From Escherichia coli (GTDB taxonomy: Bacteria; Pseudomonadota; Gammaproteobacteria; Enterobacterales; Enterobacteriaceae): DNA of 64,000 nt. The stretch lies in the NCBI RefSeq assembly GCF_003334385.1, contig NZ_QOWN01000006.1. The stretch is one strand, 5' to 3'. Under the pieces are notes generated by a model. It was not told where the DNA came from. It ran no database searches and saw nothing but the letters and a program-made list of their open reading frames with translations. A program made the position numbers and the translations under genes. Positions 10,974 to 55,669 of the stretch are shown here, in pieces. Position 1 is the stretch's first letter, and each line of letters opens with the position of its first letter.

Positions 10974-11225
10974 TTAATGGGATTCACCCTGTGGGGTAAA
11001 CTTGAGTTCAATAAGCGCGATGGCTTTTTGGATTGCCCGCATGGTGACCGGGTCTGCGGCGGCGGGATGGTTAGTAAAGTCGATATTCTTCAGCTGACTG
11101 GACATTTTTTCACGAACTTCAACGGGCGCGATTACATCGAGAACATCCAGAATTTGTTTGATAACCAACTGGCAAGCAACCACATCAGAAACCAATTCCT
11201 GATCGGCATTCAGCGGCTGGGACAT
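10974..11225 (-). CDS. yecJ: DUF2766 family protein YecJ (83 aa)
   Basis: ORF translation matches YecJ. Confidence 0.88.
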
Positions 11226-11311
11226 CGTAAACTCCTGATAGCATTTTGAAAGCCGTTATAGTAGCGACTTCACATCTTCAGCGATAGTCACATCCACCGT
11301 CATCAGGACAC

Positions 11312-11339
11312 AAAAAAACCTGCCGGAGCAGGTTTTTTG
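11312..11339 (-). terminator. Intrinsic terminator downstream of azuC (hairpin AACCTGC-CGGA-GCAGGTT flanked by A/T tracts; potentially bidirectional)
   Basis: Inverted repeat 11317-11333 with A7 upstream and T6 downstream. Confidence 0.7.
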
Positions 11340-11426
11340 TTATCGGAACATATTGCCTGGCGGTACGTCTTTGAACGTCTTGCAATAGTTATTGAACATA
11401 CTTTTCAGGATTTTGCGCAGTTTCAT
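11340..11426 (-). CDS. azuC: Small protein AzuC (28 aa: MKLRKILKSMFNNYCKTFKDVPPGNMFR)
   Basis: Manual translation of minus strand gives exact 28-aa AzuC sequence; carried on the IsrB transcript. Confidence 0.88.
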   Translation of the reverse strand: MKLRKILKSMFNNYCKTFKDVPPGNMFR

Positions 11427-11688
11427 CGCGGCACTCCGACCATTTGTTATACAGGTGTTATTGTCTTTGCGCTTATAATATGACAACCATCACAAAAATC
11501 AATCTTTATGTGATACAAATCACATAAATACCCCTTTAATGTTATAAAAATGATAATCAAAAAACAGCCCCCCTATTTCTGACACCTACAGATGGCAAGA
11601 AATAGCGCCTGCCAGGCGTCTTTTCCGGCCATTGTCGCAGCACTGTAACGCGTAAAATAGTGCTTTCTCTTACTCTTCTGGCTGGACC

Positions 11689-15240: not shown

Positions 15241-15291
15241 CGACACTGCTTATTGCTTTGATTTTATTCTTATCTTTCCCATGGTACCCGG

Positions 15292-15378
15292 AGCGGGACT
15301 TGAACCCGCACAGCGCGAACGCCGAGGGATTTTAAATCCCTTGTGTCTACCGATTCCACCATCCGGGCTCGGGAAGAA
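15292..15378 (-). tRNA. leuZ: tRNA-Leu (87 nt)
   Basis: Reverse complement matches E. coli leuZ tRNA sequence as recalled (GCCCGGATGGTGGAATCGGTAGACACAAGGGATTTAAAATCCC...CCA). Confidence 0.95.
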
Positions 15379-15390
15379 AGTGGAGGCGCG

Positions 15391-15464
15391 TTCCGGAGTC
15401 GAACCGGACTAGACGGATTTGCAATCCGCTACATAACCGCTTTGTTAACGCGCCAAATTCTTCA
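15391..15464 (-). tRNA. cysT: tRNA-Cys (GCA), 74 nt
   Basis: Reverse complement matches E. coli cysT (GGCGCGTTAACAAAGCGGTTATGTAGCGGATTGCAAATCCG...). Confidence 0.95.
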
Positions 15465-15507
15465 GGCCTTTCAGCCAGACATCCGCTTGACGCCGATGTC
15501 TTTTAAA

Positions 15508-15584
<77 letters not shown>

Positions 15585-25419: not shown

Positions 25420-25545
<126 letters not shown>

Positions 25546-47090: not shown

Positions 47091-47177
47091 AAATCCCGAC
47101 CCTGAGGGGGTCGGGATGAAACTTGCTTAAGCAAGAAGCACTTAAAAAATTCGTTACACCAGGAAATCTGATGTGTT
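47091..47177 (-). ncRNA. dsrA: DsrA small regulatory RNA (87 nt)
   Basis: Reverse complement reads AACACATCAGATTTCCTGGTGTAACGAATTTTTTAAGTGCTTCTTGCTTAAGCAAGTTTCATCCCGACCCCCTCAGGGTCGGGATTT, matching DsrA as recalled. Confidence 0.93.
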
Positions 47178-55049: not shown

Positions 55050-55415
55050 TTATTCATAGCGTCTGCTACGTGCGGGACGAGGTCGGGTGTACCAGGCAAT
55101 GCTGCCTAACAATGCCCCGACCAGAGCCATAAATAAAAATCCGACCAGTGCCCCTAACCACTTTCCCGCGGTAGAGCCTAAATCGCTTTCAAATCCCGAC
55201 ACGGGGGCATCGGGGATCCGGCTCATCACCCAGATGTAACGCGCCATTGCCCAGACGAAATAGCCACACCATGTATAGAAAGCCCACAAAGCCAGTTTGC
55301 CGCCAGGGCTGCGAGAGAGTCTCTCTTCCATCTTTGTCGAACCGTATTCCATTTTGAGATAACCCGGAAAATTCAGACTTAGTACTATTATGTGATAAAA
55401 GTCACATTTTTCCAC
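55050..55415 (-). CDS. yedR: Inner membrane protein YedR (start uncertain; ORF extends to 55433)
   Basis: ORF translation matches YedR; a GTG start at 55415 gives the 121 aa I recall for K-12. Confidence 0.8.
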   Translation of the reverse strand: MEKCDFYHIIVLSLNFPGYLKMEYGSTKMEERLSRSPGGKLALWAFYTWCGYFVWAMARYIWVMSRIPDAPVSGFESDLGSTAGKWLGALVGFLFMALVGALLGSIAWYTRPRPARSRRYE

Positions 55416-55643
55416 ATTGGATGAGCCAGTCAAGACTCACTCATTTTTTGAACAAATAGATAATTTTTGCGCAACGGCAGTGAATACAGGAAAAATCGTT
55501 TTGAGCGATTTTATTTATCTTTGATATCGGCTTTATTAATTCATTTAATCAATATATTAGCACTGATTACAATTATACCTTTTTATTATTCTGTGTCATG
55601 ATGCTTACGTTATTAGCCTTTTATCGTCTTGTTTATATTTTTT

Positions 55644-55669
55644 GGGCCGGCATGATGCCGGCTTTTTTT
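55644..55669 (+). terminator. Orphan plus-strand intrinsic terminator (GGGCCGGC-ATGAT-GCCGGC followed by T7) with no upstream plus-strand gene
   Basis: GC-rich hairpin 55644-55662 followed by TTTTTTT 55663-55669; nearest upstream plus-strand CDS is absent. Confidence 0.6.

Follow-up and report, generated by a model that had tools for sequence, protein, structure and literature searches.

The minus-strand reading frame at 11340-11426 of the DNA analysed here is, with near certainty, azuC of Escherichia coli K-12, a gene carried on the 164-nt dual-function RNA AzuCR (formerly IS092/IsrB). The gene is real and already known, being annotated in RefSeq and having been characterised in detail in 2022, and the first-pass annotation of this DNA, which had read the frame as the small protein AzuC, identified it correctly. 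In what follows, the window is the whole stretch of 64,000 nucleotides that was analysed, and positions are given in its numbering unless a genome record is named.

Identity and reading frame of azuC

The 901-bp segment 1987500-1988400 of NC_000913.3 was found to be an exact substring of the window, in plus orientation. This match fixes the offset at 1976533, so that the window corresponds to E. coli K-12 MG1655 NC_000913.3 1976534-2040533. In that record the azuC CDS (b4663, "small regulatory membrane protein AzuC") is annotated at 1987873-1987959 (minus strand), which is 11340-11426 in the window, and it is overlapped by the ncRNA azuR (b4434, "small regulatory RNA AzuR") at 1987843-1988001 (minus strand), or 11310-11468. 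Direct translation of the minus strand of 11340-11426 yields an ATG start, 28 codons, and a TAA stop at 11342-11340. The frame opens ATG AAA CTG CGC and closes TTC CGA TAA, and its product, up to the stop, is MKLRKILKSMFNNYCKTFKDVPPGNMFR. Our re-translation agrees with the one first given for this 28-codon frame, and the annotated azuC CDS of a second MG1655 record encodes the identical 28 residues.

A search of NCBIfam aligned residues 2-27 of the 28 to NF033642 (stress_AzuC, "stress response protein AzuC", an equivalog family) at 75.9 bits, against a cut-off of 30 (E = 1.3e-21). With the same coordinates and translation as RefSeq azuC and this family score, the name AzuC stands. A mismatch on comparison with the annotated azuC/isrB locus had been named as the refuting outcome, and the comparison gave zero mismatches. 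The small-protein reading held in that AzuC is real and the isrB locus had been named; what it left out was the riboregulator half, azuR (b4434), which is encoded by the same bases.

At 28 aa, AzuC falls under the 60-aa threshold of the ORF track, as the first-pass annotation had stated, and the accompanying warning that the gene would be missed is valid for raw length-filtered ORF lists. It does not extend to RefSeq. A 501-bp query around the ORF located the locus in 5420 of 5426 complete E. coli genomes, and azuC, yecJ, and yecR were annotated beneath the match in all 15 among the matches listed (of 5420). Standard annotation calls azuC in essentially every E. coli genome.

The choice of start codon can be settled from the published transcript. 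In an ORF list with a minimum length of 20 aa, the azuC frame is given as a 48-aa ORF with a TTG start, 11340-11486 (minus strand). That this maximal ORF of the frame is the true product is extremely improbable. The published transcription start site (TSS), 11468, is downstream of the TTG at 11486, which falls between the -35 and -10 hexamers of the promoter; the ATG at 11426, the earlier choice, is therefore the correct start. Across genera, indels in the leader are not multiples of three, and the leader is poorly conserved outside the FnrS site and the Shine-Dalgarno sequence; RefSeq and NCBIfam both adopt the 28-aa form. Seven nt 5' of the ATG, a Shine-Dalgarno GGAG can be read at 11434-11437 (minus strand). 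Longest-ORF calling would put a wrong N-terminus on azuC, at TTG 11486 within the promoter spacer. The locus can serve as a positive control, given that a true 28-aa gene and its right start codon were recovered from raw sequence alone.

Orthologues were sought in one genome per species by scanning contigs with a degenerate DNA pattern for the N-terminal 11 residues. The scan gave 60 matches, of which 55 were clear AzuC orthologues from about 20 Enterobacteriaceae genera, 54 of them 27-28 aa in length. The hosts were Escherichia, Citrobacter, Klebsiella (oxytoca group), Raoultella, Kosakonia, Leclercia, Buttiauxella, Cedecea, Siccibacter, Franconibacter, and others. Five matches from unrelated phyla (L011, L012, L022, L024, and L049) were discarded as chance, and one azuC, in Enterobacter sp. 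EA-1 (L033), is frameshifted and present as a 34-aa version. Salmonella and Klebsiella pneumoniae were not found among the N-terminal-pattern matches (one genome per species), which may be a true absence or an artefact of the fixed N-terminal pattern. Most Escherichia AzuC proteins are 28 aa long and end in NMFR, with N or D at position 12, while those of most other genera are 27 aa long and end in AMF or GMF, with E12. Three loci that are labelled as other than Escherichia (L030, L035, and L044) have the 28-aa form ending in MFR.

To read the mode of evolution, we took codons 12-27, the part outside the constraint of the search pattern. Among 44 distinct sequences, the numbers of variable columns at codon positions 1, 2, and 3 were 3, 4, and 14, and the mean pairwise differences per site were 0.049, 0.090, and 0.365. 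Eleven of these 16 residues are invariant, though most of their codons vary synonymously. Variation concentrated at third positions, together with invariant residues, indicates purifying selection on the AzuC protein. The same pattern effectively refutes the view that IsrB is solely a non-coding sRNA whose 28-codon ORF is fortuitous and untranslated. That view can draw on the first description of the RNA as the sRNA candidate IS092/IsrB (PMC8915982), on the shortness of the ORF, and on the plentiful chance ORFs of 20-50 aa in the region, yet we consider it hardly credible. A frame of 27-28 codons is kept in 54 of 55 species loci, GGAG occurs 5-12 nt 5' of the ATG in 55 of 56 sequences, and AzuC is reported to be made in the cell, on the evidence of SPA-tagged protein and of ribosome binding (PMC8915982).

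Beyond its conservation, the AzuC peptide has a net charge of +6, and for its residues 1-20 we computed a helical hydrophobic moment of 0.53, a value matched by 1% of shuffles. The computed moment and charge agree with what would be expected of the published amphipathic, membrane-associated peptide, for which membrane localisation has been reported (PMC8915982).

Promoter, leader, and terminator of AzuCR

AzuCR is 164 nt long with its TSS at NC_000913 1988001, which is 11468 in the window (PMC8915982). Start and length together place the 3' end at 11305, so the RNA covers 11305-11468 on the minus strand, with RefSeq azuR ending five bases short of it at 11310. The leader is a 42-nt 5' UTR. The interval of 11305-11430 originally assigned to the feature has as its lower bound the very base at which the 164-nt RNA is published to end, and its upper bound leaves out the 42-nt 5' UTR.

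A promoter scan found a sigma-70 promoter at 11475-11502 (minus strand), made up of a -35 hexamer TTGATT (11502-11497), a 16-nt spacer, and a -10 hexamer TATTAT (11480-11475). Counted from the published TSS, the -10 hexamer occupies -12 to -7, the canonical hexamer-TSS distance. The proximal of two CRP-type sites, TGTGA-N6-TCATA at 11479-11494 (minus strand), has one mismatch to TGTGA-N6-TCACA, is centred at about -18.5, and overlaps the promoter spacer and the -10 hexamer. We regard it as a candidate CRP target, and its position fits the reported repression of AzuCR transcription by CRP (PMC8915982). The distal one, a perfect TGTGA-N6-TCACA palindrome at 11509-11524 (minus strand), is a putative site centred at about -48.5. 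A 2025 study placed repressor sites for FNR (11506-11525), PhoP (11513-11530), and NarP (11527-11543) within genome positions 1988039-1988076 (PMC12266141), which we converted to window coordinates with the offset of 1976533, and the distal palindrome overlaps the FNR and PhoP sites. Elsewhere in the window, two more perfect TGTGA-N6-TCACA palindromes occur at 2702-2717 and 55391-55406; allowing up to one mismatch, there are 6 matches in the window against 1.95 expected.

The leader contains the FnrS pairing site CACCUGU at 11451-11457 (minus strand), transcript nt 12-18. FnrS pairing at this place, 25-31 nt 5' of the azuC ORF, was demonstrated by compensatory mutations (PMC8915982), and the 5' end of FnrS in the K-12 record, GCAGGUG, is complementary to it through 6 Watson-Crick pairs and 1 G-U pair. 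A windowed duplex scan, which ignores accessibility, returned as its best duplexes FnrS nt 4-39 with AzuCR nt 31-108 instead of the proven 7-nt site, and this result was set aside.

At the other end of the unit, an intrinsic terminator occupies 11312-11338 (minus strand). The hairpin, AAAAAACCUGC-UCCG-GCAGGUUUUUU, has a UCCG loop between the stem arms AAAAAACCUGC and GCAGGUUUUUU and spans 11338-11313, and the seven-U run spans 11318-11312; the sequence through the hairpin can also be given as AAAAAACCUGC-UCCG-GCAGGUUUUUUU, and the RNA fold has 11 bp. Its folding energy is -18 kcal/mol (z = -5.2), a stability that none of 200 shuffles attained. Hairpin and U-tract begin two bases past the stop, which bears out the earlier statement that the ORF ends directly at an intrinsic terminator. 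A simple terminator scan of the window did not list this hairpin, we think because the A/U extension of the stem takes up most of the U-run. With a sigma-70 promoter and an intrinsic terminator of its own, AzuCR is predicted from the sequence to be a discrete unit; Northern data on it have been published (PMC8915982).

The elements of this unit recur across the orthologous loci. TATTAT is kept as the -10 hexamer in 55 of 56 sequences, and the terminator, as CCTGC-N4-GCAGG-T6, is likewise present in 55/56. The distal CRP palindrome is found with up to one mismatch in 52/56, and the composite of -35, proximal CRP site, and -10, TTGAT..GTGA-N6-TCATATTAT, is exact in 46/56. For the FnrS site, CACCTG[CT], 42/56 sequences match exactly and 51/56 with one mismatch allowed. 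An RNAalifold analysis of 54 transcripts showed the terminator as the sole robust helix, itself invariant, and the other short helices were without convincing covariation. To what is known of AzuCR the cross-species data add a little: the unit as a whole, from promoter to terminator, has been kept in no fewer than 55 Enterobacteriaceae species, which belong to about 20 genera.

Neither the gathering threshold nor a limit of E up to 1 brought up an AzuCR or IsrB family in Rfam 15; we read this as the family missing from the library, not as evidence against membership in AzuCR. Sub-threshold matches to STnc370 and rsmX were rejected, as they align solely to the terminator hairpin. The STnc370 match lies at 11280-11344 on the plus strand, opposite to azuC, and scores 33.4 bits against a gathering score of 54. 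It aligns to the symmetric A6-stem-U7 hairpin, which could terminate transcription in both directions, though no convergent gene ends there. The other gathering-level Rfam matches in the window were DsrA, RseX, three tRNAs, and a borderline ES036/CssrF (38.1 bits vs 37.6); the coordinates listed for those matches are 47091-47177 (minus), 55580-55669 (plus), 15285-15584 (minus), and 25470-25511 (plus). A further terminator-like hairpin, CGCCTGGCAGGCG followed by CTATTTCTTG, was seen at 11606-11618 (minus strand) between the divergent genes azuC and yecR, on the 5' side of the AzuCR promoter. No gene ends there on that strand, and with 1 such hairpin found against 1.0 expected, it is probably due to chance.

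Base pairing with cadA and galE

As a riboregulator, AzuR base pairs with cadA close to the ribosome-binding site and with galE within the coding sequence, and both genes are thereby repressed (PMC8915982). The pairing region of AzuR is located within the azuC ORF, and translation and pairing interfere mutually (PMC8915982). We examined the pairing with a 30-nt windowed RNAduplex scan, a method that ignores accessibility. Whole-length RNAduplex runs, in which AzuCR was paired with cadA or FnrS, were discarded for giving unrealistically long duplexes with large internal loops.

In the windowed scan, the best duplex with cadA joined AzuCR nt 85-113 to cadA positions -13 to +16 at -26.2 kcal/mol, an energy equalled by 2 of 40 shuffles. 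On the AzuCR side this corresponds to a predicted seed region at 11356-11384 (minus strand), or codons 15-24, with borders that we infer. For galE, several duplexes of similar energy were obtained, all of them within the CDS, and the published site was not singled out by the scan. This in-silico support is consistent with the paper but weak, and the proof of pairing comes from the published compensatory mutations.

Within the predicted pairing region of the ORF, no extra synonymous constraint was detected, with a diversity of 0.30 vs 0.33 in the rest of the ORF. Several third positions are near-invariant across genera, those of TGC15 (53/53), GTA21 (49/53), CCG22 (49/53), and GGC24 (42 of 43 glycine codons). 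A 3-bp pairing is also possible between the CCG/GCC of codons 22-23 and the CGG that immediately precedes and overlaps the Shine-Dalgarno sequence, with pair types CG, UG, and UA.

One might ask whether the transcript is the AzuC mRNA alone, its riboregulation being an artefact of overexpression with no physiological role. Target repression was mostly seen from plasmid overexpression (PMC8915982), and our own analysis lends this some colour, in that the cadA duplex barely beats shuffles, galE is ambiguous, and the pairing region carries no excess of synonymous constraint. We nevertheless judge it quite unlikely. Compensatory mutations restore the repression of both cadA-gfp and galE-gfp, cadA-gfp is higher in a chromosomal azuCR deletion, and AzuCR co-immunoprecipitates with Hfq and ProQ (PMC8915982); in addition, RefSeq lists azuR as a regulatory RNA. 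The preferred reading remains that of one RNA with two functions, and the biology of AzuCR is a good example of a dual-function RNA whose coding and base-pairing regions overlap and compete.

Neighbourhood, proposed mechanism, and related systems

The annotated neighbours of azuC are yecJ, downstream on the same strand, the divergent yecR, and the adjoining ftnB and ftnA. The azuC-yecJ pair spans 10974-11426 (minus strand), and its arrangement was compared across loci L007-L066. Of the 55 species loci, 45 have yecJ 3' of azuC and in the same orientation, usually with its ATG 160-210 nt past that of azuC. Most Buttiauxella loci depart from this adjacency. The AzuCR paper never mentions yecJ (PMC8915982), and a search of NCBIfam with YecJ (DUF2766) gave no match. 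The conserved adjacency is the only observation made here that goes beyond the literature consulted on AzuCR. It is doubtful that it reflects an undescribed functional or transcriptional coupling. If it does, transcription might run past the AzuCR terminator into yecJ in a regulated way, or YecJ could act in the GlpD, membrane, or acid-stress pathway of AzuC.

The other flank varies between genera. In Escherichia, yecR starts merely about 260 bp upstream of azuC, whereas about 2.3 kb separates the two genes outside Escherichia. In Citrobacter sedlakii (L020, 6971-9113), a DHA2-like MFS transporter, below NCBIfam cut-offs, and a PRK09273/RpiB-like protein lie between azuC and yecR.

We propose the following mechanism for the locus, combining our sequence features with the literature. 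The predicted sigma-70 promoter, with one CRP-type site beside it and another across it, would drive a short minus-strand transcript running from 11468 to 11305. This transcript would consist of a 42-nt leader bearing the FnrS site and GGAG, the 28-codon ORF, and a terminator starting two bases past the stop. The ORF would give rise to a cationic amphipathic peptide at the inner membrane, and AzuC is reported to bind GlpD, on the evidence of co-purification, and to stimulate it (PMC8915982). Through its in-ORF region the same RNA would repress cadA through pairing at the ribosome-binding site and galE through pairing internal to its coding sequence, with translation and base pairing in competition. 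Transcription would be repressed by CRP and also by FNR, NarP, and PhoP, as the literature describes. At the RNA level, FnrS with Hfq is reported to repress AzuC translation, and ProQ to stabilise AzuCR (PMC8915982).

Set against AzuC/AzuCR as described (IsrB, IS092; b4663/b4434; NF033642), the locus in the window is the type locus itself, with identical nucleotides, coordinates, protein, promoter, terminator, and neighbours. The nearest mechanistic analogues of AzuCR are SgrS/SgrT, Spot 42/SpfP, and VcdRP, and all of them lack a sequence relationship to it. SgrS/SgrT of E. coli is, like AzuCR, an enterobacterial sRNA with two roles, pairing with mRNAs and encoding a small protein that acts on carbon metabolism (PMC8915982). 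Its coding and pairing regions are separate and serve the same pathway, whereas those of AzuCR overlap, compete, and act in partly different pathways (PMC8915982). Spot 42, which encodes SpfP, and the Vibrio RNA VcdRP resemble AzuCR as carbon-metabolism sRNAs that also encode proteins of 15-29 aa (PMC8915982). Spot 42 is repressed by CRP, as is AzuCR, and VcdP stimulates an enzyme, as AzuC does (PMC8915982). The protein partners differ, being CRP and citrate synthase in these two systems and GlpD in the case of AzuC, and VcdRP, unlike AzuCR, encodes its protein and pairs with its targets through distinct regions (PMC8915982).
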